Positions 4,070 to 40,371 of a DNA stretch of 64,000 nt are shown here, piece by piece; the first letter of the stretch is position 1; every line of letters starts with the position of its first letter. Below the pieces are notes generated by a model. The model ran no database searches and was not told the DNA's origin. It saw only the letters and a list, made by a program, of their open reading frames with translations. Origin of the DNA: an uncultured delta proteobacterium (GTDB lineage Bacteria > Desulfobacterota > Desulfobulbia > Desulfobulbales > JAGXFP01); assembly GCA_963807225.1 (NCBI GenBank), contig CAWEAD010000008.1, positions 200,586 through 264,585 of the forward strand. Direction: 5' to 3'. The translations under genes were made by a program, and so were the position numbers.

Positions 4070-5104
4070 TTATTCCGCGCCATCATGTCTAGAGGTAAAG
4101 AACTGGCATTCCAGGGCCATGGTGAAAACCCCGACTGCCTGACGGGTTTTCTGGTCTTCCTCCAGCGGCAAAAGCAATTCCGGTTCAATTTCGAAAAACA
4201 GCCACGGCCTCAGGAAATTCCGCCGGTAACGGCTGGCTATCCGGTAGGTGGTGATCAGATCCGGTCTGGTTAGTCCGTAGACGCCCAGATCAAGTGATAA
4301 GGCGCTCTTTGGGGTAAGTTGCCGGAAAAAACTGGTTTCCACCCCCCAGTGCAGACCGCTTTCGTTTTCCAGATAACTGGCGAAAAAGCTGAGCCGCCCG
4401 GTGATATTGGCCGGCAGCACTCTTTCCAGATCGAGGAGCGAGGTTTCACCGGAACCGTGCAAGGTGTTCCAGTAGGCGGTTTCCGACAGACGGACGACGT
4501 TGAGCTTGCCTAGATGCATCAGACGGATATAGCGAATTCTGATATAGCTCTCCATGGGCCAGCCCACGGTCAGTCCGCCGCCGAAATGAAAACGATCCCG
4601 CAAGGTTTTATAGATCATGTAACGCAAGCCCAGTGAGGTTTGTTCCTGGTCGTCCTCGGTTAGAAGACTGGAATCTAAGTTGTCCGGTCTGGGCTCCAAG
4701 TCATCGTATCGATTGCCGCCAAAGGCGATCAGGCGCAGGCGCCTGTTGACCCTGGGCAGAATCACGTTGGCATTGACTCGCACCGGGAACTTGAAGCCTT
4801 CGCCTTCGGTGAATCGGGCGGAGGTGCGCAAGCGGACATAGGTTGCGGGTGGATCATCGTCTTCTAATCGCCGATCGCCAAAAAAATTGTCGAACCAGAG
4901 GGTAGGACCCCGTAGTTTGTCTTCCAAATAAGTGTGATAGGTGTCGAGAAAACTCATGATCCGTCCGGAAGATCGGGGTTGTTCCGCCGAGGCGAAGCTT
5001 TCCTCACCCCGGGCCCTCGGGGCGCCGAAGGCGAGAATCAGCGTCAGGAAAAACAGGAAGGTTGCGGGTGCCAGCTTAAAGCGAGTAAATGAGAAGTTTC
5101 GCAT
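4070..5104 (-). CDS. hypothetical exported protein, probably an outer-membrane beta-barrel
   Basis: N-terminal signal peptide FLFFLTLILAFGAPRARGEE. Alternating hydrophobic/polar strands with an aromatic-rich C-terminus. No family recognised. Confidence 0.55.
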   Translation of the reverse strand: MRNFSFTRFKLAPATFLFFLTLILAFGAPRARGEESFASAEQPRSSGRIMSFLDTYHTYLEDKLRGPTLWFDNFFGDRRLEDDDPPATYVRLRTSARFTEGEGFKFPVRVNANVILPRVNRRLRLIAFGGNRYDDLEPRPDNLDSSLLTEDDQEQTSLGLRYMIYKTLRDRFHFGGGLTVGWPMESYIRIRYIRLMHLGKLNVVRLSETAYWNTLHGSGETSLLDLERVLPANITGRLSFFASYLENESGLHWGVETSFFRQLTPKSALSLDLGVYGLTRPDLITTYRIASRYRRNFLRPWLFFEIEPELLLPLEEDQKTRQAVGVFTMALECQFFTSRHDGAE

Positions 5105-5304
5105 TTTGTTTATTTAAACATCCCGGGGAGATTGTCACCGCTTTTTTTATGGGGCATCATGGGTTGTAGCCAATTCGGCGCCTCTCTCGGCGGTGATTGA
5201 CTTTGCTCGAATAATCAAGCATCGTGCCGTGTTGAAGGAAGGCGGATGTTGCCGGCGGGGTTTCGGGCAATCTTAGCAGTAATTTGATCGAGGAGAGATT
5301 TGAC

Positions 5305-5934
5305 ATGGGCTGGTTCAAAAACATAAACCGCAAGTTTTTTGCCGGATTGCTGGCTGTGTTGCCTATTCTGGCGACGATATATCTGTTCTATTGGGGGGTT
5401 ACCGCCATCGAAGGTGGGCTGGCGGCGATACTGGGGATCTTTCTGCCGGAAGGGGCCTATCGTCCCGGTCTCGGACTGGTGGCCGGGGTGGTGATCATCT
5501 TTCTGGTCGGGAATCTGGTCGAGACCTTTATGGTTCGTGATCTCCTGGCCAAGGTTGAAGAACTGATCCTGAAAATTCCTGTGGTCAAGATTGTCTACGG
5601 AGCCACTCGCGATCTGCTCTCTTTTATCTCGCGGGGCAAGGAACGTGGCGGTGGACAAACAGTCTGGGTTTCCCTGGGGGTGGGTGAGCTGGTGCTGCTG
5701 GGATTTGTAACCGGTGATGACTTGAGCGATTTTGGTGAAGATTTCCGTGAGATGATCACTGTGTATCTGCCTTTCAGCTACCAGATCGGTGGTTACACCG
5801 TGGTCGTTCCGCGCCGACGGGTGGTCCCGGCCGGGATTCCGTTCGAAAAAGCGATGCGTTTTGTTATGACCGCCGGAGTAATGGAAAGCAAGTCGCACCG
5901 GAGCCGAATGAAAACGGCGATGGAGAAGCCTTAA
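5305..5934 (+). CDS. DUF502-family membrane protein
   Basis: MGWFKNINRKFFAGLLAVLPILATIYLFYW... and IPVVKIVYGATRDL are typical of DUF502. ATG at 5305 is preceded by GAGGAG. The ORF track starts at an upstream TTG (5284). Confidence 0.7.
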   Translation: MGWFKNINRKFFAGLLAVLPILATIYLFYWGVTAIEGGLAAILGIFLPEGAYRPGLGLVAGVVIIFLVGNLVETFMVRDLLAKVEELILKIPVVKIVYGATRDLLSFISRGKERGGGQTVWVSLGVGELVLLGFVTGDDLSDFGEDFREMITVYLPFSYQIGGYTVVVPRRRVVPAGIPFEKAMRFVMTAGVMESKSHRSRMKTAMEKP

Positions 5935-8924: not shown

Positions 8925-9608
8925 TTATTTTTTCAGATTGAACAGATCCCTTAAAAGGTTGAGTCCCCCATAGACGACCATTCGGTCGCCGGCCAGGATT
9001 TCTTCGGTGGCCTTGGGGACCGGCAGCCATTTCCCTTCCCGTTCAATGCCCAGAACCAACAAGCCCTTGGCGGTCAGACGGCAGCCTGCCAGGGTCTTGC
9101 CGACTAATTCCGATTCGACGCCAATCGGCGCCTTAACCAATCCGTAACCTTCGATAAGGTGCAGGAGTTCTTCCGCCGGCGCCTCTTCGAAGGCGGGCGA
9201 TTTGATCAGCCGGGCCTCGATAAACCTTTCCCAGAGACCGATGATCTTCTGCCCGGTCATGAGCTTATAAATCAGGAACAGACCAAGCAACAGCAAGCCA
9301 CCGTTGAGCAGGGCGCCGGAACCGGTGCTGAAGATCATCGACGAGGTGGTGGTGACGATCACCGTCACCACCCCGGCGTTACCCAGAATCATCAGCCAGA
9401 TGATGATCTTGCGCCTGGTCGGGTGATTGATCACCGCTTCCGATTCCCGGGTCGTGAAGCCGGTGCCACTGAAAGCCGAAAGGGCCTGGAAGCGGGCGCG
9501 GTTCTCGTCCAGTCCGGTAAGCATCAGACCGATGGCGGCAGCCCGAACCACCAGAAATGAAACCAGGACGGTGACCAGAGTGGGAATGATAAAATAGATA
9601 CCGTTAAT
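8925..9608 (-). CDS. membrane protein with a TrkH/KtrB-like pore-loop motif and C-terminal TrkA-C (RCK_C) domain; probable non-canonical ATT start
   Basis: RFQALSAFSGTGFTT pore-loop-like motif between TM helices. The C-terminal segment GYGLVKAPIGVESELVGKTLAGCRLTAKGLLVLGIEREGKWLPVPKATEEILAGDRMVVYG is an RCK_C fold pattern. The first TM helix (INGIYFIIPTLVTVLVSFLVV) lies upstream of the first canonical start (GTG 9551). GGAGG plus a 6-nt spacer plus ATT is at 9608. Confidence 0.6.
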   Translation of the reverse strand: MNGIYFIIPTLVTVLVSFLVVRAAAIGLMLTGLDENRARFQALSAFSGTGFTTRESEAVINHPTRRKIIIWLMILGNAGVVTVIVTTTSSMIFSTGSGALLNGGLLLLGLFLIYKLMTGQKIIGLWERFIEARLIKSPAFEEAPAEELLHLIEGYGLVKAPIGVESELVGKTLAGCRLTAKGLLVLGIEREGKWLPVPKATEEILAGDRMVVYGGLNLLRDLFNLKK

Positions 9609-9841
9609 GGCACACCTCCGTTTTCGGTTATGGGGGCAATTTCCAGCCTTTCCCGATTCTAACTGAATTTGGCAGGGATTTCATCGATTCCCGAGGGCTG
9701 ACAGCAATGCCGGACCGTGTGCCGATCGCTGGCGCTCAGCATGAGAAACTTCTGGCGAAGATCAAGCCGGTTTTGCTTCTAAGCATTTCTTATCTCCTTG
9801 TTTTAAGTCGATAAAAAATATACCTACGGAAAATTTTTTTG

Positions 9842-9906
9842 TTGCAATCGGACTGACGGCTATTTATCATGGGGTGAAAGTGGAGCAAAAGGGTTTCTTT
9901 GTGGAA
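9842..9906 (+). promoter_or_regulatory. sigma70-type promoter plus phased G-rich repeats (candidate MraZ operator) for the mraZ-ftsA-ftsZ-like operon
   Basis: -35 TTGCAA (9842-9847), 17-nt spacer, -10 TATCAT (9865-9870), with an A/T-rich UP-like tract at 9811-9841. Pentamers TGGGG (9870), TGGAG (9881), GGGTT (9891) and TGGAA (9902) are phased at 10-11 bp. Confidence 0.5.
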
Positions 9907-9940
9907 TATATGCCCTGAGTAGGGTGGGAGATTGGCGGGA

Positions 9941-10408
9941 ATGGAACAATGCCTTTTCATCGGCACGCATAGTGCGGTACTGGACGAGAAGTCCAGGCTG
10001 GTGATGCCGGCAGGCTTCCGAAAGGACAATTCCGAGGCGGTGTTGAACGGCGATTTTTATATCACTTCACACCAAGAGGGTTTTCTTATTGTGCGTCCTG
10101 GGGTGGTCTGGGATGGTTATCTCCGTTCGATCGAGGCTGCCGTGGAGTTGGATGGGGTTCAGAAGCGCAAGTTCATCCGGCTGCTCTGTAATAATTCGGT
10201 CAAAATCAGGCTGGACAGCCAGTTCAGGGCGGTTCTCAGTCAGCCACTGCGCCGCAAACTGGCCTTCGATGACGAGGAACCGCGGCAGAAAGTGGTGGTG
10301 GTCGGTTGCGGTGATTTCCTGGAGGTTTGGCCGGAGAACCGTTACCGCGGCGAGGAAGATTCGACCCGTGAGCTGTCCGGCTTTATCAACGGCTTTGACG
10401 GCAGATGA
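9941..10408 (+). CDS. mraZ: MraZ-family transcriptional regulator (divergent), 155 aa
   Basis: Duplicated SpoVT/AbrB-type halves: FIGTHSAVLDEKSRLVMPAGFRK and RLDSQFRAVLSQPLRRKL...VVVVGCGDFLEVWPENRY. These align to E. coli MraZ [23 protein letters not shown] and MDGAGRLLIAPVLRQ...VMLVGQFNKFELWDETTW. Confidence 0.75.
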   Translation: MEQCLFIGTHSAVLDEKSRLVMPAGFRKDNSEAVLNGDFYITSHQEGFLIVRPGVVWDGYLRSIEAAVELDGVQKRKFIRLLCNNSVKIRLDSQFRAVLSQPLRRKLAFDDEEPRQKVVVVGCGDFLEVWPENRYRGEEDSTRELSGFINGFDGR

Positions 10409-10433
10409 AGGCTGATACTCGGGGAACAGTGAG

Positions 10434-11684
10434 ATGCTGACCAGACATACCAATATCACCACGGTCAACGTCGGTTCCGCCAATACCACGGCGGTGATCG
10501 CCGAGGTCGATAACGAAGGGCGGGCCGGCTTGCTGGGCTACGGGCAATGTGCCAGCGCCGGTTTGAGTGACGACTTGATCACCGATATCCGGGAACTGGG
10601 CAGGGCTATCGCGGAATGTGTCGGCCAGGCGGAAGAGATGGCGAAACAAAGCAGCGGACCTCTGATTCTGGCCATCGGCGGCGAACATGTTCGGATCTTG
10701 AACAGTCGGGACGGCATTGCCCTTAATCCGGGCGACGATGAACACCGCTCACGGAATATTACCCGGCAGGATATCAAAAAGGTTCTGGAAAAAGCCGGAA
10801 AGGTAATGCTGGCCATGGACTTGGAGCAGTTGCATGTCCTGCCGGTCAGTTTTCTGGTGGACGGCCGCCGGGTTAAAAATCCGGAAGGCATTGGCGGCAA
10901 CAGGCTGGATGTTGAGGTGCTGGTCATCGCCGGCCGGCAGACGATCATGCGGTCCCTGATGAAGGCTGCCGAATTTGGCGGCTACCGGGTGCGAAAGTTC
11001 TGTTATCGCCCATTGGCAACTTCCCGGGCCGTACTGAGTCTTGATGAACTTGACCGGGGAGCCTGTCTGATCGACATCGGCGGCCGCCATACCGATATTG
11101 CCCTTTTCAAGGAAAACCGGCTGCTTTATTCCTCGACCCTGGTACTGGGCGGCGCCAACATTACTTCGGATACCGGGCAGCTGCTGGCTATCAATCAGCA
11201 GGAAGCTGAAAAGATAAAATTGAAATATGGTTATTGCGGCACCCTGGCCGGAGAAGACCTGAAATTTCAGTTGAGCGGTGTGGGTGGCGATGGAGCCCTC
11301 TGGCGCCTGGTCCGAAAATCGGCCTTGGGAGTCGGCGTTATTCAGCCTCGGGTCGAGGAAATTTTCGACGAGTCGGTGGCGGCGCTGAAAGGCTACCTAG
11401 GCCGCGAACAGTGGACGGGCTGCGCGGCCTTGACGGGTGGAACTTCACAGCTTCCGGGAATCCGGGAACTGGCCAGGGCTAGATTACCGTTTATGGTAAA
11501 TGCCGGTAAAAATATCGTCTTTGACAATCTCGATGAAGAGTCCTCTCGGCCGGAATATGCCACGGTCCTGGGAATGGTGGCCTACGATACGGAGCAGCGT
11601 CTGAGCAGGCGTGAAGAGGTGCGTGATAATCCGATTACGCGCTGGTGCGACAAGATAATCAGACAAATCCACACGGTTTTGTAA
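10434..11684 (+). CDS. ftsA: FtsA-like actin-fold protein (divergent), 416 aa
   Basis: Actin/HSP70-fold phosphate motifs VNVGSANTTAVIAEV, LIDIGGRHTDIALF and LTGGTSQLPGIRELA. The C-terminal amphipathic tail ITRWCDKIIRQIHTVL is analogous to the FtsA membrane-targeting helix. Confidence 0.75.
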   Translation: MLTRHTNITTVNVGSANTTAVIAEVDNEGRAGLLGYGQCASAGLSDDLITDIRELGRAIAECVGQAEEMAKQSSGPLILAIGGEHVRILNSRDGIALNPGDDEHRSRNITRQDIKKVLEKAGKVMLAMDLEQLHVLPVSFLVDGRRVKNPEGIGGNRLDVEVLVIAGRQTIMRSLMKAAEFGGYRVRKFCYRPLATSRAVLSLDELDRGACLIDIGGRHTDIALFKENRLLYSSTLVLGGANITSDTGQLLAINQQEAEKIKLKYGYCGTLAGEDLKFQLSGVGGDGALWRLVRKSALGVGVIQPRVEEIFDESVAALKGYLGREQWTGCAALTGGTSQLPGIRELARARLPFMVNAGKNIVFDNLDEESSRPEYATVLGMVAYDTEQRLSRREEVRDNPITRWCDKIIRQIHTVL

Positions 11685-11706
11685 GCGTTTATTTGCGGGG
11701 GCCTCA

Positions 11707-13104
11707 ATGACGTCTGAAAACAACGGTTATAACTTCTCCCTGACCGAGTGCGGAAGTTCCACCAGGATGGTGGCTCTGGGCATCGGCGGTATGGGTAGCA
11801 ATGCCATGGAAAACCTGGCTCGGGCCGGTATCGATGGTATGGAACTTTTTTCCCTGAATACCGACCGTCAAGCCCTGGCTCATTGCCGGGGCAGCCAGCC
11901 GGTGCAGATTGGTGACAAGCGGACTGGCGGCAAGGGGGCCGGTGGCAACAGCGATGTGGGGCGGTTGTCGGCCGAAGACGATGTCGAGAAAATCCGCGGG
12001 ATCGTCAAGGGCGCCGAATTGGTCTTTATCGCCTCGGGTATGGGCGGAGGTACCGGTACCGGAGCGGCACCGGTAATCGCCAAGCTCTGCCGCGAACTCG
12101 GGATCATGTGTATCGGTACAGTGACTATGCCGCTCTCCTGTGAAGGTAGCAAAAGGAATGAGAAGGCAAGGGTCGGACTCGAAGAATTGCGGCAGCAAGT
12201 CGACTCTCTGTTGATAATTGAAAATGAAAACCTCCTGGCGGTTATGGGTGAGGAAGATGTCTCTATTAAGGAGGCTTTTCAGCAGGCCGATAACGTGCTG
12301 GTCAAATCGGTCAAGGCCATAACCACGATTATCGATGCCCACGGCTATATTAATCTGGACCTGGCCGACCTGCGCAACGTCCTGCAGCGGGGAGACAGTG
12401 AAAGAGGGGTCGATGCCTTTATCGGGATAGGAGAAGCCACCGGTGAAGACAGGGCCGTGCGGGCGGCGGATCTGGCCTTGCGCAATCCGCTGCTGCGACA
12501 GATCGATATCATGGGCGCTACCAACCTGCTGATCAATGTTGCCGGCAGCGAGGAGATGGGCCAGCGGGAGGCCATGCAGGCGGTTAAATGCGTGGTGGAT
12601 CGGGCCGGCGACCTGGATCGGGAAATATTCATGGGAGTTGTCACCGATAACTCCCTGGGAGATTCTCTCAGTGTCACTATCATAGCCACCGGTTTGCCTG
12701 ACGGCAATGGCCGGGTTATTCCCCTGGCCCGGGGGAATGCTGACCAATCGGAACTGATCATTGCGCCCGATAACCTTGAGATTCAGGCAACTGGTGCCAG
12801 TGCCTTGATGGGTCTGGTCGAAGAAGTAGCCGAGTCGGGTCATCCCTCGGCGATGGCGGAGATTGGCGGAGAAGTTGCATCATGCGCTCCGGATGGATTG
12901 GGGCGTTCCCCCTTGATCTGCAAAGTCGATTGGCAGACACCGGCCTATTTACGACGACGGAGTATAGCCAGGACGGCCGAAGCCGCGACCCCGGTTCCCA
13001 AGCTTAATAAAGCTGTCAGCCGCAATCGTGCTCCCGATAGCCATACCACATGCCTGGTAACGGGGAACCGCCCTTTTAGGCAACCCCTGTATAATCTAGC
13101 CTGA
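11707..13104 (+). CDS. ftsZ: FtsZ/tubulin-family GTPase (divergent), 465 aa
   Basis: Tubulin signature GMGGGTGTGAAP, T7 loop NLDLADL, NTDRQAL, VDSLLIIENENLL. Roughly 35-40% identity to E. coli FtsZ by eye. An internal PAYLRRR motif resembles the FtsA-binding C-terminal peptide. Confidence 0.85.
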   Translation: MTSENNGYNFSLTECGSSTRMVALGIGGMGSNAMENLARAGIDGMELFSLNTDRQALAHCRGSQPVQIGDKRTGGKGAGGNSDVGRLSAEDDVEKIRGIVKGAELVFIASGMGGGTGTGAAPVIAKLCRELGIMCIGTVTMPLSCEGSKRNEKARVGLEELRQQVDSLLIIENENLLAVMGEEDVSIKEAFQQADNVLVKSVKAITTIIDAHGYINLDLADLRNVLQRGDSERGVDAFIGIGEATGEDRAVRAADLALRNPLLRQIDIMGATNLLINVAGSEEMGQREAMQAVKCVVDRAGDLDREIFMGVVTDNSLGDSLSVTIIATGLPDGNGRVIPLARGNADQSELIIAPDNLEIQATGASALMGLVEEVAESGHPSAMAEIGGEVASCAPDGLGRSPLICKVDWQTPAYLRRRSIARTAEAATPVPKLNKAVSRNRAPDSHTTCLVTGNRPFRQPLYNLA

Positions 13105-13349
13105 GGCCAAATCCTCCTCCTCCTGGCTGCGTGGCCTGTTGCACCTATCTCTTAGTTGTCTCAGGCTACGCAGCCAGGCCTTACCCTCCAACACCAACAA
13201 CCGGCCGGCATTAGACCTTGGCAGATTGCTCGAACCGGTGTACGCCTGTCTTGAACAATTACACTTAAAAACGGTTCTGACCGGTTGCCAATGGCTTAAG
13301 GGATATAACCTTTCAGCTATTGATCGAGTCGGAAAGAGACGAAGTCGGT

Positions 13350-14657
13350 ATGCTAGAGAACCCCAGGACAGGATTGCTTAAAGCAATATTCAACCGGCGG
13401 ATGTTGATATGTCTGTTCAACGGACTGGCCGCGGGGATGCCGCTTTTCTTTCTCTACCATTTAATCCCGGCCTGGTTGCGGAGCGAGAATGTCGATCTGA
13501 AAACAATCGGTCTGTTTTCCCTGGTCGGTATCCCCTACACCTGGAAGTTTCTCTGGTCGCCGCTGATGGACCGGTTCTCGCTCCCCTTTCTTGGGCGGCG
13601 GCGCGGTTGGATGCTACTTACCCAACTGGTCCTGCTCGGTACCATGATGTCGATAGGACTTCTCCACCCTGCCCACCAGATTCTGTTGATTGCCGCCATG
13701 GCGGTGGTTGTGGCTTTTTTTTCGGCGAGCCAGGACATCGTTCTGGATGCCTACCGGCGGGAATTGTTACCGGATAACGAACTGGGGTTGGGTAATTCCA
13801 TGTACGTCAATGGATACCGGGCCGCAGTCTTCATTCCTGGCGGTCTGGGTCTGATTTTGGCCGATCATTTAAGCTGGCCGCTGGTCTTTATGGTTATCGG
13901 CGCCTTCATGCTGATCGCCATCGCAAAAACCCTATTGATCAAAGAAGCTTATACCAGCGTGGCCCAGCCGGTAACCCTGGCCGCGGCCGTGGTCAAACCT
14001 TTTCGGGAATTTTTCGGCCGGGAAGGGGGTGTCAGGCAGGCGCTCCTGATTCTGGCTTTTCTCTTCTTCTACAAGTTGGGCGACAACATGGCGACCGCCT
14101 TGTCAACTCCGTTTTATCTCGATTTGGGATTTTCTAAAACCATCATCGGATCAATGGTTAAATTAGTGAATTTCTGGGCGATGCTGGTTGGCTCTTTTAT
14201 CGGTGGCGCAATGATATATAGAATCGGCATCAACCGGTCGCTCTGGGCTTTCGGACTGGTACAGATGCTGTCTATTCTGGGTTTTGCCTGGTTGGCCGAG
14301 GTCGGCGACAATGTCGTGTTATTGGGAGGGGTGATCGGTTTTGAGTATTTGGGGGTCGGACTGGGGACGGCGGCCCTGGTAGCCTACATGGCCCGGTTAA
14401 CCAACAAGGATTTCACCGCCACCCAATTCGCCCTGCTTTCCAGCCTGGTTGCACTGCCCCGCAGTTTCGCTAATGCCAGCACAGGATTTCTGGTCGAAGG
14501 TATCAAGGCCGGTGATGGGATATACTTCAAGATTTTCGGAGCCTGGAATGGGCTGGGATATAGCCGGTTTTTCATCTTCTGCACCATTTGCGCCATTCCC
14601 GGAATGATATTGTTGAAGTGGGTCGCACCCTGGCCCGACAGGGGACAACGTAAATAA
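13350..14657 (+). CDS. ampG: AmpG-family MFS permease (muropeptide transporter)
   Basis: GLAAGMPLFFLYHLIPAWLRSENVDLKTIGLFSLVGIPYTWKFLWSPLMDRF is the hallmark AmpG N-terminus. About 12-14 TM helices. ATG at 13350 lies within an ORF that opens at TTG 13320. Confidence 0.85.
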   Translation: MLENPRTGLLKAIFNRRMLICLFNGLAAGMPLFFLYHLIPAWLRSENVDLKTIGLFSLVGIPYTWKFLWSPLMDRFSLPFLGRRRGWMLLTQLVLLGTMMSIGLLHPAHQILLIAAMAVVVAFFSASQDIVLDAYRRELLPDNELGLGNSMYVNGYRAAVFIPGGLGLILADHLSWPLVFMVIGAFMLIAIAKTLLIKEAYTSVAQPVTLAAAVVKPFREFFGREGGVRQALLILAFLFFYKLGDNMATALSTPFYLDLGFSKTIIGSMVKLVNFWAMLVGSFIGGAMIYRIGINRSLWAFGLVQMLSILGFAWLAEVGDNVVLLGGVIGFEYLGVGLGTAALVAYMARLTNKDFTATQFALLSSLVALPRSFANASTGFLVEGIKAGDGIYFKIFGAWNGLGYSRFFIFCTICAIPGMILLKWVAPWPDRGQRK

Positions 14658-15116
14658 GAGAGGATGGTCGCGATTTGCTGGTGTGGAGAAGAAGTAATAG
14701 CCTTCATGTTTTCAACTTCTACATCACACTGCAATGACACAGTTGCTTCATCAGTTAAATTACAGGTAATGACGAACTTATTGAAACGTTGCTTCCCTGA
14801 CAATTTTTTGTTATTATTCTAAGTGCTTAAAAAGTTGTTGATATCAATGCGTTAAGGGTAAAATCTCAGATGATGGCGAGATCCGATAACGGATTTTATA
14901 GCCTTTCCGGAGATCTTGATTCAAGCCTTAACTGACTGAAAAATTCAATGGTTAGTACAGGTTATGCTTTACTTGCTTCTGCGACGCTGTTATTGTCACT
15001 TTGATTGCAATAGCAGACAAATCCGCGACTAAACTACTGCTGTCAAGTAAAGCAACTACGTGGTTCAGCCGGCTGGATTTCAACCGGGTCCGCTTGTCGG
15101 GAGGGAGAGGGGGAAG

Positions 15117-17216
15117 ATGATCGGTAAAAGAATCAGTCAATGTTGTTATCTTGTTCTGGCCCTGGCACCATTTTTCTGGGGCTGTTCTGCCGGACAGGGA
15201 GACTTCGTTAAACATGTCGATAGTGAGACGGCCAACTATGTCATTTCTCCCTCAGACACCGGGTTTCTGGCTGACGGCCAATCGCGGGAGACTATCTATT
15301 TCAAGAAAGGGGAAGGTGAGCTCATCCGGCTTTCCCCATATCCTGCCTCGGAGCGTGTCGGCAAGACAACCAAGGAAGTTCTGACTCCGGTCCAGGCCGA
15401 CTTCAAGGCGGCCGATACGCCTGAAAAACTGGCAACCTTCATCGAGCGGTATGCCCCGGACGAGTTGGCTTTTGTGGCCGTGCAACGGTTGGCGCAATCG
15501 GCCCTGATGGCGAAAAAATGGAATGAAGCAAAGTCCATATTCACCTCCTTTCGTGACCGTTTTCCAAACAAGGCCTCGGATTTCAATACCATAATCTCTC
15601 TGCTGGAAGCACCGGATACCGAACTGGCTGTAGACAATCTTGGACCGAACATCAATACCGGTGAAGGCGAGTATGCACCTGTGCTTTCGGCCGATGGAAA
15701 GAAAATGCTCTTTGCCCGGGATTGCGGGGTATGTGATGGCGGTGAGGAGGTATACACCTCCAGTCTGGACCAATCGGGATTCTGGCGGCTGGCCACCCCT
15801 TTCGGGCCACCCTTGACCAGCAAAGGTAATGAAGTACCCCTGGCCCTGTCGGCGGACGGTAATACTCTGGCGGTTTATGGCAATTATCCGCAATCTCTGG
15901 GGCGGGGAGATATCTTCTACCTGAACAAGACTCAGGAAGGCTGGACCGGTCTTAAGCATTATCCGGCCCCACTTAACAGTGAATACTTTGATAGCAACGC
16001 CATGTATCCAGCCGACGGCAAGGCCATACTATTCGTCTCCGAACGTCCAGGTGGGGTCGGCGACCTGCACGAGAAGGGCAAATTCTTCCACGGCGGCTAC
16101 GACGGCAATACCGATATTTATGTTTACCTTCCGAAAGCGGATGGCGGCGGGGAGGTAATCAACCTGGGCCAGGTCATCAATACCCCCTATGCCGAGTATT
16201 CTCCCTTCCTCCATCCGGACGGCAAGACCCTTTATTTCAGTTCCGATGGCCATGCCGGCCTGGGAGGGTTGGATGTGTTCAAGTCCACCCGCTTAAGCAG
16301 CGATTCCTGGACCGAGTGGAGTGAACCGGTCAATCTGGGCAAGGAAATCAACACTCCGGATAACGATTGGGGATATCAGTTCCCCGCTGCCGGCGAAAAG
16401 GCTTATTTTGCCGTGAGTAACCGCTCGAACGGTTTTGGTGGCAGCGATATCTATTCGATCGAGCTGCCTCCTGCAGCTAAGCCCAGCACGGTCATTACAA
16501 TTTACGGCACGGTAACCGATCCCGACGGTAAGTTCCTGGCCGCCGATATCCGCTGGAACGATATCGATGCCGGCAAGGAAGTGGGTGAGGCCACCAGCGA
16601 TCCCCAGACCGGAGAGTTCGTCATCAATCTGCCGGGTGGCGGCATATATGGTTATTATGCCGAAAAACCAGGTTACATGGGAGAATCTGAACATGTCGAC
16701 CTGACCGAGGATCTCGGTTATCGCGAGTATGCCGTAGATATTGTGCTCTATCCCATTCCCCAACCAACGACCCCCGAAGTAGCAGCCGAAGAGCCGGCAC
16801 CGCCGCCCGAGGTCGCGCCGGTTGAGCCGAAGCCCGAGCCGGCTCCGGAAGTGGTGGCGGTGATCCGCATGAATAATATCTTTTTCGATTTCGACAAAGC
16901 CACTTTGCGCAATGAGTCGCGTATGGAGCTTGACCGATGGGTGAGGATGCTTAAGGAGAATCCGGCAATCAGCCTGGAAATCGCCGGCCATGCCGATAGT
17001 GTCGGCACCGAACCATACAACCAGAAGCTCTCCGAGCGTCGCGCTCAGGCCGTTTGCAACTATCTGGTCGAGCAGGGTATCGATCGTGGACGACTGGTGG
17101 CCAAGGGCTTTGGAGAGTTGCAGCCGGAGGCCTCCAATGACACCGAGGAGGGTAGGCAACGTAACCGGCGGGTCGAGGTGAAAATACTTAACAACGGTAA
17201 TGGACGGATGAAATAA
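15117..17216 (+). CDS. OmpA-family lipoprotein with TolB-like (PD40) beta-propeller repeats, CarboxypepD_reg-like domain, Pro-rich linker and C-terminal OmpA peptidoglycan-binding domain
   Basis: Lipoprotein-like signal LALAPFFWGCSAG. Repeated xxYAPVLSADGKKMLFAR / AEYSPFLHPDGKTLYFSSDG PD40 motifs. C-terminal NNIFFDFDKATL...GHADSVGTEPYNQKLSERRAQAV...NRRVEV is an OmpA_C signature. SD GGGAGAGGGGGAAG precedes ATG 15117. Confidence 0.85.
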   Translation: MIGKRISQCCYLVLALAPFFWGCSAGQGDFVKHVDSETANYVISPSDTGFLADGQSRETIYFKKGEGELIRLSPYPASERVGKTTKEVLTPVQADFKAADTPEKLATFIERYAPDELAFVAVQRLAQSALMAKKWNEAKSIFTSFRDRFPNKASDFNTIISLLEAPDTELAVDNLGPNINTGEGEYAPVLSADGKKMLFARDCGVCDGGEEVYTSSLDQSGFWRLATPFGPPLTSKGNEVPLALSADGNTLAVYGNYPQSLGRGDIFYLNKTQEGWTGLKHYPAPLNSEYFDSNAMYPADGKAILFVSERPGGVGDLHEKGKFFHGGYDGNTDIYVYLPKADGGGEVINLGQVINTPYAEYSPFLHPDGKTLYFSSDGHAGLGGLDVFKSTRLSSDSWTEWSEPVNLGKEINTPDNDWGYQFPAAGEKAYFAVSNRSNGFGGSDIYSIELPPAAKPSTVITIYGTVTDPDGKFLAADIRWNDIDAGKEVGEATSDPQTGEFVINLPGGGIYGYYAEKPGYMGESEHVDLTEDLGYREYAVDIVLYPIPQPTTPEVAAEEPAPPPEVAPVEPKPEPAPEVVAVIRMNNIFFDFDKATLRNESRMELDRWVRMLKENPAISLEIAGHADSVGTEPYNQKLSERRAQAVCNYLVEQGIDRGRLVAKGFGELQPEASNDTEEGRQRNRRVEVKILNNGNGRMK

Positions 17217-17767: not shown

Positions 17768-19117
17768 TTAAAGCAGAGCTGGTTGCAGTTCGTCGCTTAA
17801 GATGATCGATCTGTCCGCGATCAGCTCATCCGTCTGACCTGTGCGCAGATTGTCTTCCAGTCCGGCGACAACCAAGCTTAGTGCCTGCAGATCAGCTCCG
17901 GCCAGAGTGGATTTCGGCTGAAATTTAAGGGCGAAGGGGTTTTTGAAGATCCCGTGGTGCTGCAGGCGGTAATCCAGATGCGGACCGGTGGCCAGGCCGG
18001 TCGAGCCGACGTAGCCGATTATCTGTTTTTGTTTGACCTGACTACCGACCTTGAGTCCTGATTTAAATTTCGAGAGGTGACCGTAATAGGTCCGGTAATC
18101 GCCGCCATGGGCCAAGACAAGCTGTTTACCGAACCCACCGTGATTGCCGATGGACACGACCCGGCCATCGGCGGCTGCCATGATCGGCGTGCCAGTGGGG
18201 GCGGCCAGATCGACTCCTAGGTGCTGCCTGACCACGCCGAGGATGGGATGCAGGCGATGATGGCTGAAGCGGGAGCTCACCCGTCCCATCGCGACCGGTG
18301 AGCGGATGAAGGAGGCACCGAGTTCATGACCTTCGGCGTCGTAATAGTTGAATTTTTTGCCGTCAGGGCTGAAGCGGAAGGCCTGCAGGATCTCGCCGTC
18401 GCTTTTCTCATAACGGGCCGCCAATATCGGGCCATAGCCGATAAACTCATTGGAGCGGTAATATTCTTCGATGATCAGGCTGAAAAGATCACCTTCTCTT
18501 GTTTCGGTATTGAAATCGAGCTTGGCGGCAAAGATATCGGCGAAGGCATAAATCGGTTTCGGGTTCTGCAAATCGTCGGGGAAGGCTGCGAACAGGGATG
18601 TGGTTATCCGCCCCTTTAACAGGATAGTTCGAACCTCAAGGTGAACTTCGTCGCGGGAGACTATCAGGCCGTCATCGGAGGGAATGGCGGTATAACTGGT
18701 AAACTGGTTCACCTGGTAATCGGCTTTGACGATCCGGCCCTCCGGATTCAGGATTATGGAATATCGGTCTCCCGGGTGAATCTTGTTGAAATCCAGGGAA
18801 TTCTTGAAAGCCTGCAAAAAACGGGCACGGATCTCGCCGGGAATGTCGTGGGCGCTGAAGGAGCGGTCCAGGGTGTCACCGGATTGGATGGTGCCCTGAA
18901 ATTCAATATATCCCGCTTGGGTAAGATCGGCCAAACTATCGGGAATCTGGTCGGGTATTTGGGTATTATGGGAGGATGGGATGGAGGCCTTGGCGTTGCG
19001 CGGATTTGCGTCACCGCCGGGTTCAGGTAAGTAGTTAATAAAAAGCAGTGTTAAACAGATGAAGAAGGTAATGGTCAGGAAGTGGAACGATTTTATGAAG
19101 TTTTTCAAAGACTGCAT
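17768..19117 (-). CDS. M23-family peptidoglycan metalloendopeptidase with N-terminal membrane anchor
   Basis: HLGVDLAAPTGTPIMAAADGRV (HxxxD) and GSTGLATGPHLDYRL (M23 C-terminal His motif). N-terminal TM FLTITFFICLTLLFI. ATG 19117 is preferred over the upstream TTG 19159. Confidence 0.85.
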   Translation of the reverse strand: MQSLKNFIKSFHFLTITFFICLTLLFINYLPEPGGDANPRNAKASIPSSHNTQIPDQIPDSLADLTQAGYIEFQGTIQSGDTLDRSFSAHDIPGEIRARFLQAFKNSLDFNKIHPGDRYSIILNPEGRIVKADYQVNQFTSYTAIPSDDGLIVSRDEVHLEVRTILLKGRITTSLFAAFPDDLQNPKPIYAFADIFAAKLDFNTETREGDLFSLIIEEYYRSNEFIGYGPILAARYEKSDGEILQAFRFSPDGKKFNYYDAEGHELGASFIRSPVAMGRVSSRFSHHRLHPILGVVRQHLGVDLAAPTGTPIMAAADGRVVSIGNHGGFGKQLVLAHGGDYRTYYGHLSKFKSGLKVGSQVKQKQIIGYVGSTGLATGPHLDYRLQHHGIFKNPFALKFQPKSTLAGADLQALSLVVAGLEDNLRTGQTDELIADRSIILSDELQPALL

Positions 19118-19552
19118 CGTTGTGGTACCTGGTTGACAGGTCAAGATTGTCGGCTGCAAGCCGAGTTAGATGTAAATCACCTTTTAACTGAATCGCCGCA
19201 TAAGTAAACACTTATTTTCCTACCTCGTACCCTCCGAGAGGCCGACAATCTTGGAACCAGGACAAATTTATCTAATGATTACAAATGGTTATTATATAAG
19301 CAAATTGGGATCACTTCCCGCTCGGGCAGACGAAGCTGAAAGTAAAGATATCACTGGGCTTTGCCGTTGATGGTTTAGTAACGGTCCGGATGTACCGGCC
19401 CAAAGTACCTGGGACGCCGGAAAATCTCCTAGTCATTTTCCGAAAATACTGTTAATAAATGGGGCTGTTTGCATGGTGCCCGGCCTGTCCGGCCTGGCCT
19501 GTACGGGGGTCCCCTTGGGACCGGCAAATCCGACGAACTGGTAAATGAAAAA

Positions 19553-24155: not shown

Positions 24156-25289
24156 CTATAGTTTGCCCAGGACCGACCACATGATGCCGGCGGCGATAGC
24201 CGAGCCGATCACCCCGGCCACGTTGGGGGCCATGGCATGCATCAGCAGGAAGTTTTCCGGATCTTCTTTCTGGCCAACCATCTGCACCACCCGGGCCGAG
24301 TCTGGTACGGCCGAGACTCCGGCGGCGCCGATCAGCGGGTTGATCTTCTCTTTCAGGAAAAGATTCATGAATTTGGCGAAGAGCACTCCGCCCATGGTGG
24401 CTATCACGAAGGAGAAGGCGCCCAGTCCGAAGATCAACATCGACTTGGGGGTCAGGAAGGTCTGGGCCTGGGTGGAGGCGCCGACCGTGAAGCCCAGGAG
24501 GATGGTGACGATATCGATCAGGGCGTTGCGTGCGGTCTTGGCCAGCCGCTCGGTCACTGTGCTTTCCTTCAACAGGTTACCGAAGAAGAGCATGCCGAGC
24601 AGGGTCATCGAACCAGGGGCGATCAGGGCGCAGACCAGGAAGGCAACGATGGGGAAAATGACCTTCTCCCTCTTGGAGACGATCCGGGGGGGCTTCATCC
24701 TGATCAGCCGTTCCTCCTTGCTGGTCAGCAGGTACATGACCGGAGGCTGGATCACCGGCACCAGAGCCATATAAGAGTATGCTGCAATGGCAATAGGGCC
24801 CAGGAGATCCGGGGCCAGCATTGATGCCAGGAAGATGGCGGTCGGGCCGTCGGCCCCGCCGATGATGCCGATTGCCCCGGCCTGGGCGGCGGAAAAGCCC
24901 AGGAGCAGCGAACCCAGCAGGGTGATGAAGATGCCGAGCTGGGCGGCGGCCCCCAGCAGGATCAGCTTCGGGTTCGAAAGCATGGTGGAGAAATCGGTCA
25001 TCGCCCCGATACCAAGGAAAATCAGGGGCGGATAGATGCCCTTGACCACCCCGAAGTAGAGGTAGGAGAGGGCGCTGCCGGAGTCGTAAACACTCAGCGC
25101 CATACCGTTGATAGGCGGGATGTTGCCGACCAGGATGCCAAAGCCGATGGGCACCAGTAGGAGCGGCTCGTAATCCTTGGTGATGGCCAGGAAGATGAAG
25201 ATGATCCCGATCAGGATCATCATCCCGTTGCCCCATTCCAGGGAAGCGAAACCGGAGTTTTTAAGAAAGGACAGGCTTTCCAGATTCAC
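24156..25289 (-). CDS. mmdB: Na+-translocating decarboxylase beta subunit (OadB/MmdB/GcdB family)
   Basis: 377-aa polytopic membrane protein. GIGAMTDFSTMLSNPKLILLGAAAQLGIF and AAGVSAVPDSARV match the OadB family. It is the last gene of the methylmalonyl-CoA operon. Confidence 0.85.
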   Translation of the reverse strand: MNLESLSFLKNSGFASLEWGNGMMILIGIIFIFLAITKDYEPLLLVPIGFGILVGNIPPINGMALSVYDSGSALSYLYFGVVKGIYPPLIFLGIGAMTDFSTMLSNPKLILLGAAAQLGIFITLLGSLLLGFSAAQAGAIGIIGGADGPTAIFLASMLAPDLLGPIAIAAYSYMALVPVIQPPVMYLLTSKEERLIRMKPPRIVSKREKVIFPIVAFLVCALIAPGSMTLLGMLFFGNLLKESTVTERLAKTARNALIDIVTILLGFTVGASTQAQTFLTPKSMLIFGLGAFSFVIATMGGVLFAKFMNLFLKEKINPLIGAAGVSAVPDSARVVQMVGQKEDPENFLLMHAMAPNVAGVIGSAIAAGIMWSVLGKL

Positions 25290-25305
25290 GGTTTGACTGC
25301 CTCGC

Positions 25306-25740
25306 TCATTCGATGATCACCAGTTCCTGGCCCTGATTGACGGTATCGCCGTCGCGGACCAGGATCTTCTTGACGATGCCCTCGTGCTTGGCATTGATCT
25401 TATTTTCCAACTTCATGGCCTCCATGATCAGGAGCTTCTGGCCGGCGGCGACCCGGTCGCCTTCCCGCACGAAGATTGATTTGATCTGTCCGGGCATGGG
25501 CGCGGTGATGGCGCCGTCACCGGTTCGCGTCACCGGTTGGCGGTAGGTAGGGGGCTGCCGGGAAGGGGTTTCTGCGGCGCCAAGTTGCGAGATTGGTTGG
25601 GGCAGGGAAAGGTTTTTGATGGCCTGGATTTCGACCAGATGGTCGTGGCCGTTGACCTCAACCTGGATATCCCGGGGGGTGACGTTCTTGATCACCACTT
25701 CGTAGAGCCGCTCATTGATCTTCAATTCATATTTCTTCAT
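25306..25740 (-). CDS. mmdC: biotin carboxyl-carrier subunit (MmdC/OadA-C-terminal type)
   Basis: C-terminal biotinyl domain ITAPMPGQIKSIFVREGDRVAAGQKLLIMEAMKLENKI with the (E)AMK biotinylation motif. Confidence 0.85.
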   Translation of the reverse strand: MKKYELKINERLYEVVIKNVTPRDIQVEVNGHDHLVEIQAIKNLSLPQPISQLGAAETPSRQPPTYRQPVTRTGDGAITAPMPGQIKSIFVREGDRVAAGQKLLIMEAMKLENKINAKHEGIVKKILVRDGDTVNQGQELVIIE

Positions 25741-25746
25741 GACCTT

Positions 25747-26154
25747 CTATCTCCTGGGCGGGCTGAGCCGGCCGTGCAGGTTCATGGCTTCGAAGCGTCC
25801 GGCCCGCTGCCATGAGGAATCCCAGAGCTCGTGGCGCTTCCAGGTGATCTTCCGGTTGTCGTGGCTGCTGAACTGATGCAGGTGCAGGGCTACGGCTACC
25901 GCCAGCAGGGTCTCGGTGTCGAGCAGTTCTCCCGTCGGAGTTCCGCCTGCGGCATCAACCGGCCGAGCCCTAGGCAGGGCACTATTCTTCAGGTGGCTGG
26001 CCCAGAACAGCAGTTTGGGCAGCAGGGCGATATAGATGGCGATCACCCCCAGACCGATAAAGACGACAATCATTCCCACCAGGCTGAATTCCAGGGCATT
26101 GAAGCGGGAATCGACCAGACTGGCGAAATTCGGTTGTATAAAGTTGAAGTCCAC
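25747..26154 (-). CDS. OadG-like small membrane subunit of the decarboxylase (MmdD/OadG-type anchor)
   Basis: Single N-terminal TM LVGMIVVFIGLGVIAIYIALL as in the OadG family. It sits between the carboxyltransferase and biotin-carrier genes. The C-terminal half is not recognised. Confidence 0.55.
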   Translation of the reverse strand: MDFNFIQPNFASLVDSRFNALEFSLVGMIVVFIGLGVIAIYIALLPKLLFWASHLKNSALPRARPVDAAGGTPTGELLDTETLLAVAVALHLHQFSSHDNRKITWKRHELWDSSWQRAGRFEAMNLHGRLSPPRR

Positions 26155-26165
26155 GCGCTACTCCT

Positions 26166-27706
<1,541 letters not shown>

Positions 27707-27710
<4 letters not shown>

Positions 27711-28132
27711 TCGTCGTGCTCCTTATCTCTCCCGGCTGGAGAGCAGAATTCGGTCAGTACGCCGTGGCTGGACTTCGGGTGGAGAAAGGCCACTTGTTTA
27801 CCCCCGGCCCCGATAATCGGCGTTTCGTTGATCAGTCGACAGCCGGCCGCTGCCGCCCGGGACAGTTGCTCGTCGAGAGCATCGGTCCGGTAGGCCACGT
27901 GATGGATACCCTCGCCCCGAGTTTCCAAAAACTTGGCGATGGGGCTGTCCGGCGCGGTCGGCTCCAATAGTTCAATGTGTACCTCGCCGACCCGGTAAAA
28001 GGCGGTGCGCACCTTTTGGCTCGCCACCTCCTCGATTTTTTCGCAGACCAAACCTAGCACATTTTCATAAAATAGTCCGGCCTTTTCCAGACTGTGTACG
28101 GCGATTCCCAGATGATCGATCTTGGTCAGCAT
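27707..28132 (-). CDS. mce: methylmalonyl-CoA epimerase (VOC/glyoxalase fold)
   Basis: [27 protein letters not shown]...[12 protein letters not shown]...[14 protein letters not shown] is a typical epimerase pattern. 4-nt overlap with mmdA. Confidence 0.85.
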
Positions 28133-28144
28133 ATTCTTTCCTCG

Positions 28145-29797
28145 TTAATCCCGATATTCCCCAAAGACCTCTCTTAAAACTCCGCAGATCTCGCCCAGGC
28201 TGGCGTAAGTTCGCACCGCCGCCAGAATCGGTTCCATGAGATTGGTTTCACCGGTTGCCGCCTCTCTCAGTAAGGACAGGGACTCGGCCACTCTAACTTG
28301 GTCACGTTCACTCTTAACCCGGGTCAGCCCGGCCACCTGTTGTTCTTCCACCGCCGGTTCAATCTTCAATCGTGGCGGTCTTTTCCCCTCTTCGCTCTGA
28401 AAGCGGTTGACTCCTACGATGACGCGTTCACCGGACTCTATTTCCTGCTGGTAGTCGTAGGCGGCACTCTCAATCTGCCGCTTAATGAAACCGTCTTCGA
28501 TGCAGGGGATAACCCCGCCTTTCTCGTCGATTTTCCTGATCAGTTCACGGGCCTCGTTCTCGATCCGGTCGGTTAGTTGCTCGAGATAATAGGAGCCGGC
28601 CAGTGGGTCGATGGTATCGGCCACCCCGGACTCATGGGCGATAATCTGTTGGGTGCGCAGCGCGGTGCGCACCGAGTCCTCGGTCGGCAGGGACAGGGCC
28701 TCGTCGCGCGAATTGGTGTGCAACGACTGGGTGCCGCCCAAGACAGCGGCCAGGGCCTGAATAGTGACCCGGACAATGTTGTTGTCAATCTGTTGGGCGG
28801 TCAGGGTATGGCCGGCGGTCTGGGTATGGAAGCGCAGCATCAGGCTCGCCGGCTTGCGGGCTCCGAAGCGTTCTTTCATCAGCCGGGCCCAGAGGCGGCG
28901 GGCGGCCCTGAATTTGGCCACTTCCTCAAGAAGATTCGAGGAGGCGTTGAAGAAAAAGGCCAGACGCGGAGCGAAGAGATCTACGTCCAGTCCGGCGTCC
29001 ATGGCGGCCTGGACGTAGGTGCAGCCATTGGCAAGGGTCAGGGCCACCTCCTGGATGGCGGTGGCACCGGCCTCGCGGATATGGTAACCGGAGATGGAAA
29101 TGGTATTGAAGGTCGGGGTGTTGGCGGAACACCAGCGGAAGATGTCGGTGATCAGCCGCAGGCTGGGGCGCGGCGGGAAAATATAGGTGCCGCGGGCCAC
29201 GTATTCCTTGAGAATGTCGTTCTGGATAGTGCCGCTCAGTTTCTCCCTGGCCACCCCCTGTTTCTCCGCCACCGCCACATACATGGCCAGTAGTATGGCG
29301 GCCGGGGAGTTGATGGTCATGGAGGTGGAGACCTTGTCCAGCGGAATGTCGGCGAAGAGGTTTTCCAGGTCGGCCAGGGTATCAATGGCCACCCCGACCT
29401 TACCAACCTCGCCCGTGCTTTGCGGGGCATCAGAATCATAGCCGATCTGGGTCGGCAGATCGAAGGCCACCGACAGTCCGGTAGTTCCCTGGTCGAGTAG
29501 GAAACGGAAGCGGCGGTTGGTTTCGGCGGCGGTGGAAAAACCGGCATACTGGCGCATGGTCCAAAGCCGGCCCCGATGCATGGTCGGCTGAACTCCGCGG
29601 GTATAAGGGTACTGACCAGGGAATCCAAGTTGCTCCAGGTAACTCTCGTCAATTTCCGCGGGCACGGACAGTCTGGGCACCTCCGTGCCGCCATGGTAGG
29701 TAAATTTCTTCCGCCGTTCGGGGAAACGCTCAAGGCTTTTACGCAATTCGTTTTCGCGCCACTGGCGGTAGCGCTGGTGCTCACTCATCTTATTCAC
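28145..29797 (-). CDS. methylmalonyl-CoA mutase, large catalytic (TIM-barrel) subunit without B12 domain
   Basis: 550 aa. [44 protein letters not shown] and [13 protein letters not shown] are MCM N-terminal-domain motifs. Confidence 0.9.
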
Positions 29798-30732: not shown

Positions 30733-30734
30733 TA

Positions 30735-31322: not shown

Positions 31323-31342
31323 GATGCTACTCCGTAAAGAGT

Positions 31343-33390: not shown

Positions 33391-33478
33391 TGATTTATCC
33401 CATTCAGGTGACCTGAGACCTGCTCCTTAAGCAGCCTCGATTACAGTTCCCTAGTTTCGCACGGTAAGGGAATCTGAC

Positions 33479-38788: not shown

Positions 38789-38807
38789 TAATGTGTGAAA
38801 GTTTATA

Positions 38808-40369: not shown

Positions 40370-40371
40370 TC

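Follow-up and report, generated by a model that had tools for sequence, protein, structure and literature searches.

Within a 64-kb stretch of DNA from an uncultured member of the Desulfobulbales (contig CAWEAD010000008.1; the whole stretch is called the window here), three adjacent genes encode an MraZ-like, an FtsA-like and an FtsZ-like protein. We suggest that this mraZ-ftsA-ftsZ trio is a self-contained, autoregulated operon for cytokinesis that supplies the principal, and possibly the only, FtsA/FtsZ pair of its lineage, a reading to which we give a probability of about 0.5. An additional pair at work beside a canonical division locus is held to be slightly less likely than this, and what remains of the probability falls to other readings. 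All three proteins come from well-known families, and nothing about them is categorically new; it is the arrangement itself that appears undescribed. No description of an mraZ-ftsA-ftsZ trio, or of a second ftsZ in Desulfobulbales or Desulfobacterota, was found in the literature, and the arrangement is real, conserved and probably undescribed.

The list of open reading frames, Pfam and NCBIfam agree with the initial annotation of this DNA, which had recognized three co-directional genes of the mraZ, ftsA and ftsZ type separated by 25 nt (mraZ/ftsA) and 22 nt (ftsA/ftsZ) (Table 1). The sequence motifs that it had read from the proteins, GMGGGTGTGAAP and NLDLADL in FtsZ and the tail ITRWCDKIIRQIHTVL in FtsA, were all found. 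The start of the mraZ-like gene was set at the ATG at 9941, the start common to all homologues. The initial annotation had also stated that other genes of the dcw cluster (division and cell wall) are missing and that the flanks are a TrkA-C gene and ampG, and both statements hold: Pfam scans of the remaining ~45 genes show no rsmH, ftsL, ftsI, mur, mraY, ftsW, ddl or ftsQ in the window, and the two flanking genes are as described. The boundaries that it had drawn, 9842 and 13177, fall at the start of the promoter-like −35 element and within the 3′ hairpin, respectively.

Table 1. Features of the trio locus and its neighbors, in window coordinates
Feature	Position	Strand	Remarks
TrkA_C membrane protein gene, divergent	8925-9551	-	Upstream flank of the trio
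Promoter, sigma-70-like	9834-9870	+	T-tract 9834-9840; -35 TTGCAA 9842-9847; 17-nt spacer; -10 TATCAT 9865-9870 (consensus scan)
Putative MraZ operator	9871-9906	+	GGGGTG 9871-9876; GTGGAG 9880-9885; AGGGTT 9890-9895; GTGGAA 9901-9906
mraZ-like gene	9941-10408	+	155 aa from ATG; alternative TTG at 9932 gives 158 aa
ftsA-like gene with SHS2 (1C) insertion	10434-11684	+	416 aa
FtsA C-terminal amphipathic helix, putative membrane-targeting sequence	11634-11681	+	ITRWCDKIIRQIHTVL; kept in all clade FtsA
ftsZ-like gene	11707-13104	+	465 aa
FtsZ C-terminal peptide (CTP) region, variant FtsA-binding CTP	12901-12960	+	GRSPLICKVDWQTPAYLRRR; W409, P412 and R416 invariant in 32 clade members
Additional conserved peptide at the far C-terminal end of FtsZ	13075-13101	+	FRQPLYNLA, residues 457-465; two sub-clade consensus forms
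3′ hairpin	13122-13178	+	17-bp stem, without U-tract; -45.8 kcal/mol, z = -8.0 versus shuffles
ampG	13320-14657	+	Downstream flank; TIGR00901 474 bits
PD40-OmpA protein gene	15060-17216		718 aa; downstream of ampG, kept in the lineage
Csd3-like M23 peptidase gene	17768-19159	-	After the PD40-OmpA gene, alongside a SpoU methylase gene

The trio in an uncultured Desulfobulbales lineage

A search for homologs of the FtsZ-like protein returned 59 clusters (P0001-P0059), with identity down to ~40%, that share the signatures set out below; these, with the MraZ and FtsA proteins encoded beside them, are called the clade here. Below P0059 there is a clear drop to generic FtsZ, at ~260-295 bits and with alignment of the core only. 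At 90% clustering the window FtsZ was filed under a representative that is a fragment of 215 aa (P0303), hence its best listed identity is 83%. The clade is a small one: in a HMMER scan of 1.84 billion representatives, its signatures occur in 6 of the best 150 of 5030 FtsZ-like representatives (E ≤ 1e-30). Similarly, a search with MraZ gave 57 proteins, all of the clade type, and the AmpG clusters of the lineage number ~60 at 68% identity or more. Among the FtsZ-like representatives, P0328, P0329 and P0330 (744-840 aa) carry two tandem FtsZ cores and score between the clade and canonical FtsZ; they may be fusions, or artifacts of assembly or gene calling.

The named members of the clade are all metagenome-assembled genomes (MAGs), assigned to Desulfobulbaceae, Desulfurivibrionaceae (which sits in Desulfobulbales in the NCBI taxonomy), Desulfobulbales, Thermodesulfobacteriota or 'Proteobacteria', and no cultured organism is among the clade FtsZ and MraZ matches. 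GCA_013335025.1, GCA_039714535.1, GCA_945787445.1 and GCA_054043525.1 are among the assemblies with the trio. The initial annotation had proposed that conservation of the trio be looked for across Desulfuromonadales and other deltaproteobacteria. Conservation within a lineage was indeed found, but the lineage is Desulfobulbales rather than Desulfuromonadales, and an origin from the latter is rejected in view of the named relatives.

The order mraZ-ftsA-ftsZ is intact in L001, L002, L005, L007, L009-L011, L014 and L023 (labels of individual loci), and in L006, L008, L012, L013, L015 and L021 the trio extends as far as the record does; reading frames are intact across all trio loci. A metagenome scan with the MraZ alignment added eight further trio loci, whose contexts are of no new type. 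In every trio locus seen, the gene after mraZ is ftsA and never rsmH (mraW), and dcw genes are absent within 10 kb of the trio in L001, L002, L005 and L023, as well as from the flanks of L007 and L021, which are shorter. The window, L001, L002 and L023 have in common the downstream genes ampG, PD40-OmpA, SpoU, M23, aspartate kinase and LeuA, and in L011 ampG follows the trio before the record ends. Elsewhere the downstream flank is a group of toxin-antitoxin genes (L005) or a histidine kinase (L021). In L007, the trio locus that has diverged most, a gene for a RecD-like helicase (4091-5929) overlaps the stop codon of ftsZ by 26 nt, which suggests that it belongs to the same operon there. The G+C content of the trio tracks that of its host, from 0.46 to 0.57.

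With tblastn against 72,556 plasmids no gene of the trio type was found, the best FtsZ match being below 43% identity and the best MraZ matches being canonical genes at 26-34%. Bradyrhizobium plasmids of 212-573 kb (records H3-H8) have an annotated ftsZ, i.e., an extra copy on a replicon labeled as a plasmid. A scan of a genome collection by peptide patterns specific to the window FtsZ gave only two canonical loci, one of Chlorobium and one of Myxococcales, and three AmpG homologs at 66-71% identity lie in contexts that share no synteny with the window. The nearest FtsZ outside the clade (P0071, in L016) stands in a canonical murG-murC-ddl-ftsQ-ftsA-ftsZ-lpxC cluster. Judged from these sequences, the trio appears to be fixed in an uncultured lineage of Desulfobulbales.

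A conserved promoter and a putative MraZ operator

Upstream of mraZ, a sigma-70-like promoter is followed by four GTGG/GGGT boxes that are spaced ~10 bp apart and start directly after the −10 element. A T-tract, TTGCAw, a spacer of ~17 nt, a −10 element of the form TAxxAT and the box array are found at this place in 14/14 trio loci that cover the region, and even the loci that diverge most keep the layout. In the window, GTGGN7GGGKN6KTGG has one occurrence versus 0.07 expected, and in 10 of 13 trio loci that were searched and cover the region it is found exactly once, always upstream of mraZ. Its presence in these loci is partly circular, as they are the source of the pattern; its uniqueness in each locus is not. 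It has zero occurrences in seven loci without the trio.

The box array can be compared with two MraZ operators. That of Bacillus subtilis consists of three GTGG[A/T]G repeats with 4-nt spacers and is required for repression (bioRxiv 10.1101/2022.02.09.479790), and that of Mycoplasma genitalium has four GTG(T/G) boxes, with which Lys13, Arg15 and Arg86 make contact (PMC12957436). By analogy, the four boxes at the trio are a putative MraZ-type operator.

At the other end of the unit, where most loci have a hairpin or terminator, the one that follows ftsZ in the window is matched in L009 by the same stem with compensatory changes, and L001, L002, L005 and L014 have a hairpin and then a T-run at the corresponding position. 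A scan of the window found no terminator-like site within the trio unit. With a conserved promoter, an array of MraZ boxes and a terminator, the proposal of the initial annotation that the trio stands under its own MraZ-type regulator is borne out in the form of a predicted self-contained operon.

Sequence features of the three proteins

The MraZ-like protein matches the Pfam MraZ family (PF02381) in two stretches, the SpoVT/AbrB-like halves, at 47 bits versus a cut-off of 23; it stays below the cut-off of TIGR00242 (51 versus 98 bits) and far under those of the remaining NCBIfam MraZ models. Both DXXXR DNA-binding motifs are present (D15-EKS-R19 and D92-SQF-R96). In an alignment of 22 clade MraZ sequences, the mean column identity is 68% and D15, K17, R19, D92, Q94 and R96 are invariant; the invariant DXXXR residues correspond to the DNA-contact residues of M. 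genitalium MraZ. The nearest solved structures are the MraZ proteins of M. genitalium and M. pneumoniae (E = 1e-4), and the Prokaryotic Genome Annotation Pipeline (PGAP) names clade members 'hypothetical protein'.

The FtsA-like protein is matched by Pfam FtsA (95 bits) and SHS2_FTSA (55 bits) and by TIGR01174 (256 bits versus a cut-off of 176), and its best PDB matches are FtsA chains (E = 6e-45). The hydrophobic moment of its C-terminal helix is 0.75-0.81 versus 0.57 for the tail of Escherichia coli FtsA. Its phosphate-1 motif (10464-10478, residues 11-15) reads VNVGS, in which Asn replaces the expected Asp/Glu. The form VN(V/I)G is shared by the window, L009, L002, L011 and L010, whereas the other clade members have LDIG. 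Going by the sequence, the Asn may affect ATP hydrolysis.

The FtsZ-like protein matches Pfam Tubulin (PF00091, 129 bits) and FtsZ_C (PF12327, 71 bits) and passes TIGR00065 marginally (299.3 bits versus a cut-off of 295.2); for one protein of the clade, P0051, the NCBI name goes no further than 'FtsZ family protein'. The window protein comprises a globular GTPase core (residues 17-331), a disordered linker (332 to ~398), the CTP and an extra tail. In the AlphaFold model, the predicted local distance difference test score is ~90 in the core and <50 in the linker, and a low-confidence helix runs across the CTP. The top 50 PDB matches of this model in Foldseek are all FtsZ, with a target-normalized template modeling score of 0.9 and a root-mean-square deviation of 2-2.7 Å. 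The nucleotide-binding sequence GGGTGTG lies within GMGGGTGTGAAP, and the T7 motif NxDxxD is present as INLDLAD, with both acidic residues kept. The protein retains the GTPase motifs and is predicted to form GTP-dependent polymers.

It is also evident that the clade FtsZ proteins differ from canonical FtsZ at several sites. The T1 loop is GGMG in 59/59 clade sequences versus GGGG or GGAG in canonical FtsZ, and the T7 loop is NLDLAD in all but two of the 59 versus NLDFAD. The CTP of the window protein, DWQTPAYLRRR, resembles the canonical D-x-x-IPAFLRK, and binding to FtsA is predicted from this sequence. Most of the 59 clade FtsZ proteins contain [EDNQ]WxxPAxxR, which is found in 0/61 listed canonical FtsZ proteins, and most clade CTPs take the form [ED]WxxPA[YF]xR with SPL in front. 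The combination of GGMG, NLDLAD and the clade CTP is present in no listed canonical FtsZ. Moreover, clade FtsZ proteins continue past the CTP for 30-45 residues and end in a second conserved peptide, which is [YF]RQ[PA]LYxMA[GS] in the sub-clade of the window and I[YF]REPALR[LM]AC(G) in another. This terminal peptide is missing from canonical FtsZ and from the deepest branches of the clade.

Purifying selection and divergence

With the closest relative, L009, as reference, the ratio of nonsynonymous to synonymous substitution rates (dN/dS) is 0.028 for MraZ, 0.086 for FtsA, 0.059 for the FtsZ core and 0.045 for the FtsZ CTP, and it rises to 0.455 in the FtsZ linker. The neighbors CorA and TrkA_C have values of 0.080 and 0.084. 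The low dN/dS in all three trio genes reflects purifying selection and shows that all three are functional.

FtsA and the FtsZ core have diverged among relatives about twice as much as LeuA. In L002, identity to the window is 84% for both aspartate kinase and LeuA, 79% for MraZ, 75% for AmpG, 60% for FtsA and 55% for FtsZ (68% for its core); in L001, the values are 82% for aspartate kinase, 78% for LeuA, 66% for MraZ, 68% for AmpG, 45% for FtsA and 50% for FtsZ (60% for its core). Gene order, promoter and operator are kept down to identities of 48% for MraZ, 31% for FtsA and 49% for the FtsZ core.

The initial annotation had noted that the trio is more divergent from canonical proteins than its neighbors are, and the comparison of FtsZ cores supports it, as does the PGAP label of the MraZ members. 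Identity between clade and canonical cores is 35-49% (median 42.5%). Among canonical cores it is 49-100% (median 60%) for the listed matches, which come from several phyla, and 50-61% for six named cross-phylum matches. Within the clade it is 43-97% (median 63%).

A proposed mechanism

Going by what is established for the three protein families, a sigma-70-type promoter would transcribe mraZ, ftsA and ftsZ as one unit that ends at the hairpin after ftsZ. The MraZ-like protein would bind the four boxes, which overlap the region of transcription start, through its two DXXXR motifs and repress its own operon, and this negative feedback would set the levels of FtsA and FtsZ jointly. FtsZ would polymerize with GTP and dock onto FtsA by its CTP (EWxxPAYLRR), while FtsA would tether the polymer to the membrane by its C-terminal amphipathic helix and could recruit later proteins through its 1C domain. 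The peptide at the extreme C-terminus of FtsZ may bind a lineage-specific partner, or may act as a turnover signal or protease target. If the trio is the principal pair, it could have originated when the block from rsmH to ftsQ left an ancestral dcw cluster, which would have placed mraZ and its promoter directly upstream of ftsA. Because the promoter resembles the ancestral Pmra, a single relocation of rsmH-ftsQ would be enough to create the trio.

Principal pair or second module

The retained CTP, 1C domain and membrane helix, together with purifying selection, argue that the trio is the principal pair. So does its status as a fixed and long-resident feature of the lineage, with cluster counts close to one-to-one with AmpG, and so do the Pmra-like promoter and the single relocation that would suffice for the arrangement. 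Accessory FtsZ paralogs that have been described usually lack the CTP, which we also count in favor of a principal pair. Second copies of ftsZ are reported to be rare (PMC9871819), which counts on this side too. Several findings weigh against this reading. The changes in T1 and T7, the altered CTP and the added terminal peptide are what insulation from a co-resident canonical FtsZ would be expected to look like, and they are clade-wide and involve both faces of the nucleotide pocket. In a relative where LeuA and aspartate kinase are 84% identical, identity is 68% for the FtsZ core and 60% for FtsA. The clade is farther from any canonical FtsZ than canonical FtsZ proteins across phyla are from one another; cultured species of Desulfobulbales are absent from the clade matches; the trio adjoins toxin-antitoxin genes in L005; and the phosphate-1 Asp of FtsA has become Asn in the sub-clade of the window. 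The partial circularity of the box pattern, mentioned above, counts against the operon model itself.

The initial annotation had taken the trio for a second, specialized FtsA/FtsZ pair under its own MraZ-type regulator. In this explanation, which we consider a serious, if slightly less probable, competitor, the MraZ/FtsA/FtsZ module coexists with a canonical dcw cluster that has an mraZ, an ftsA and an ftsZ as well. Such a module could have arisen by duplication of the cluster ends or by an old transfer, followed by divergence at polymer interfaces and C-terminal peptides that would prevent mixing with the housekeeping ring, and, governed by an MraZ feedback loop of its own, it could serve in a distinct form of membrane remodeling or in alternative division. 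It may well be, though a principal pair is held slightly more likely, that the trio is a complete second module which co-varying changes in T1, T7 and CTP insulate and whose new terminal peptide recruits a partner. The large stem divergence of all three proteins (the FtsZ core being 35-49% identical to canonical cores versus 49-61% for cross-phylum canonical pairs) fits this explanation, as do the roughly twofold faster evolution of FtsA and the FtsZ core relative to LeuA and aspartate kinase and an MraZ that keeps its DNA-contact residues and is otherwise divergent, scoring below the TIGR00242 cut-off and called hypothetical by PGAP. The tiny size of the clade among the best 150 FtsZ-like representatives, its wholly uncultured membership, even though the families of its MAGs are generally known to include cultured members, and the variable flanks, among them the toxin-antitoxin-rich region of L005, point the same way. 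However, no second ftsZ, ftsA or mraZ was observed, with coverage confined to the window and the trio loci, joint duplicates of mraZ, ftsA and ftsZ have no described precedent, and the trio keeps everything that a housekeeping pair needs (CTP, 1C domain and membrane helix). It is also under purifying selection and appears to be fixed and long resident in the lineage, and its acceleration within the clade is only about twofold.

Two further explanations concern the status of the locus itself. That the trio is a recently acquired mobile cytoskeletal cassette, or one borne by a plasmid or phage, might be suggested by flanks that differ among deep branches and by the toxin-antitoxin genes of L005. 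It is nonetheless highly unlikely, given that the G+C content of the trio follows that of each host, that downstream housekeeping synteny extends for at least 10 kb in four lineage members, that plasmids carry no genes of the trio type in the tblastn search, and that integrase and transposase genes are absent beside the trio in the window. Recent horizontal transfer as such is rejected in view of the host-tracking G+C content and the conserved synteny. We give the least credence of all to the idea that the trio is a remnant in decay or without function, or that its genes adjoin by chance and have no specific role. FtsZ barely reaches its NCBIfam cut-off, MraZ falls below its own, and a clade member (P0026) is merely 371 aa long, yet dN/dS is 0.03-0.09 in all three genes, the frames are intact in all loci, and order, promoter and operator are kept at low identity. 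A pseudogene or remnant is contradicted by this purifying selection and conservation.

Comparison with known division loci

The canonical dcw cluster has the order mraZ-rsmH-ftsL-ftsI-mur...-ftsQ-ftsA-ftsZ and is expressed from the MraZ-repressed promoter Pmra. The trio has the same first gene and the same last two genes in the same order. As in B. subtilis, E. coli and Mycoplasma, its promoter is followed by GTGG-type repeats at ~10-bp spacing; likewise, a CTP is found in its FtsZ, and a 1C domain and membrane helix are found in its FtsA. It differs in that all of the ~13 genes in between are absent, both at the locus and in the rest of the window, so that MraZ is predicted to control ftsA-ftsZ directly here. 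In B. subtilis, in contrast, the reported effect of MraZ acts via ftsL (bioRxiv 10.1101/2022.02.09.479790).

In the short operon of Mollicutes, mraZ-mraW/rsmH-ftsA or MG_223-ftsZ, mraZ is also first and ftsZ last, and this operon is autoregulated via four GTG(T/G) boxes (PMC12957436); the reduced cluster of Mollicutes is also treated in PMC8475190 and in bioRxiv 10.1101/2025.09.01.673419. Mollicutes, however, keep rsmH and have lost the wall genes, whereas the trio operon has no rsmH and its organism has peptidoglycan-related neighboring genes. The sequences are not specifically related either, the match of the trio MraZ to Mycoplasma MraZ being only at E = 1e-4.

Extra FtsZ proteins include FtsZm of magnetotactic bacteria and FtsZ1/FtsZ2 of Rhizobiales, and such copies often lack the linker and the CTP. 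They resemble the trio FtsZ in that their ftsZ is away from dcw genes, in a conserved locus, and is more divergent than the housekeeping type. They differ in being lone ftsZ genes that have no ftsA and mraZ to themselves, whereas the trio FtsZ, known here from trio loci alone, is full-length and has its partner genes. Outside dcw clusters, divergent second copies of ftsZ occur in some genomes of the candidate phyla radiation and extra copies in Bipolaricaulota (PMC9871819).

If the trio is the sole pair, it would offer a natural example of MraZ feedback exerted directly and exclusively on the ring-forming genes, and the long-debated role of MraZ would be unusually easy to study; it would also show that full uncoupling of ftsAZ from the genes of wall synthesis is possible in a walled diderm. 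If it is instead a second pair, it would be the first duplicated and insulated division module of regulator, anchor and polymer, i.e., the first paralogous MraZ-FtsA-FtsZ system, and the role of a second Z-ring-like system would then call for explanation. Finding a co-resident canonical pair would raise the significance of the trio. On either reading, the conserved terminal peptide of FtsZ is a candidate for a new interaction motif that is concrete and testable.

Neighboring genes and other features of the window

In the protein encoded at 15060-17216, PD40 (TolB-like beta-propeller) repeats are joined by a proline-rich linker to an OmpA peptidoglycan-binding domain at the C-terminus. With this gene, the SpoU methylase gene and the Csd3-like M23 peptidase gene downstream of ampG, the trio appears to lie in an envelope-remodeling neighborhood. 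An AmpG muropeptide permease, an M23 peptidase and an OmpA-family protein as neighbors also suggest that the organism has a peptidoglycan wall.

The rest of the window holds housekeeping genes, a methylmalonyl-CoA (propionate) block and a low-G+C island of glycan synthesis genes, and two tRNAs are the only Rfam matches, with no rRNA. The methylmalonyl-CoA block (24156-35377, minus strand) encodes the oxaloacetate decarboxylase beta subunit, a carboxyltransferase, methylmalonyl-CoA mutase with a B12-binding subunit, MeaB, succinyl-CoA synthetase beta and an acyl-CoA synthetase. Such a propionate route is characteristic of organisms like Desulfobulbus, in agreement with the placement in Desulfobulbales. 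The low-G+C island (37781-42312, plus 42738-43709 on the minus strand), with a G+C content of 0.377 at 38-40 kb versus ~0.55 elsewhere, carries GT2 and GT4 glycosyltransferases, two genes resembling CDP-glycerol glycerophosphotransferase and a cytidylyltransferase. The island appears to be a cluster for a teichoic-acid-like polyol-phosphate glycan, acquired by horizontal transfer and carried here by a diderm.

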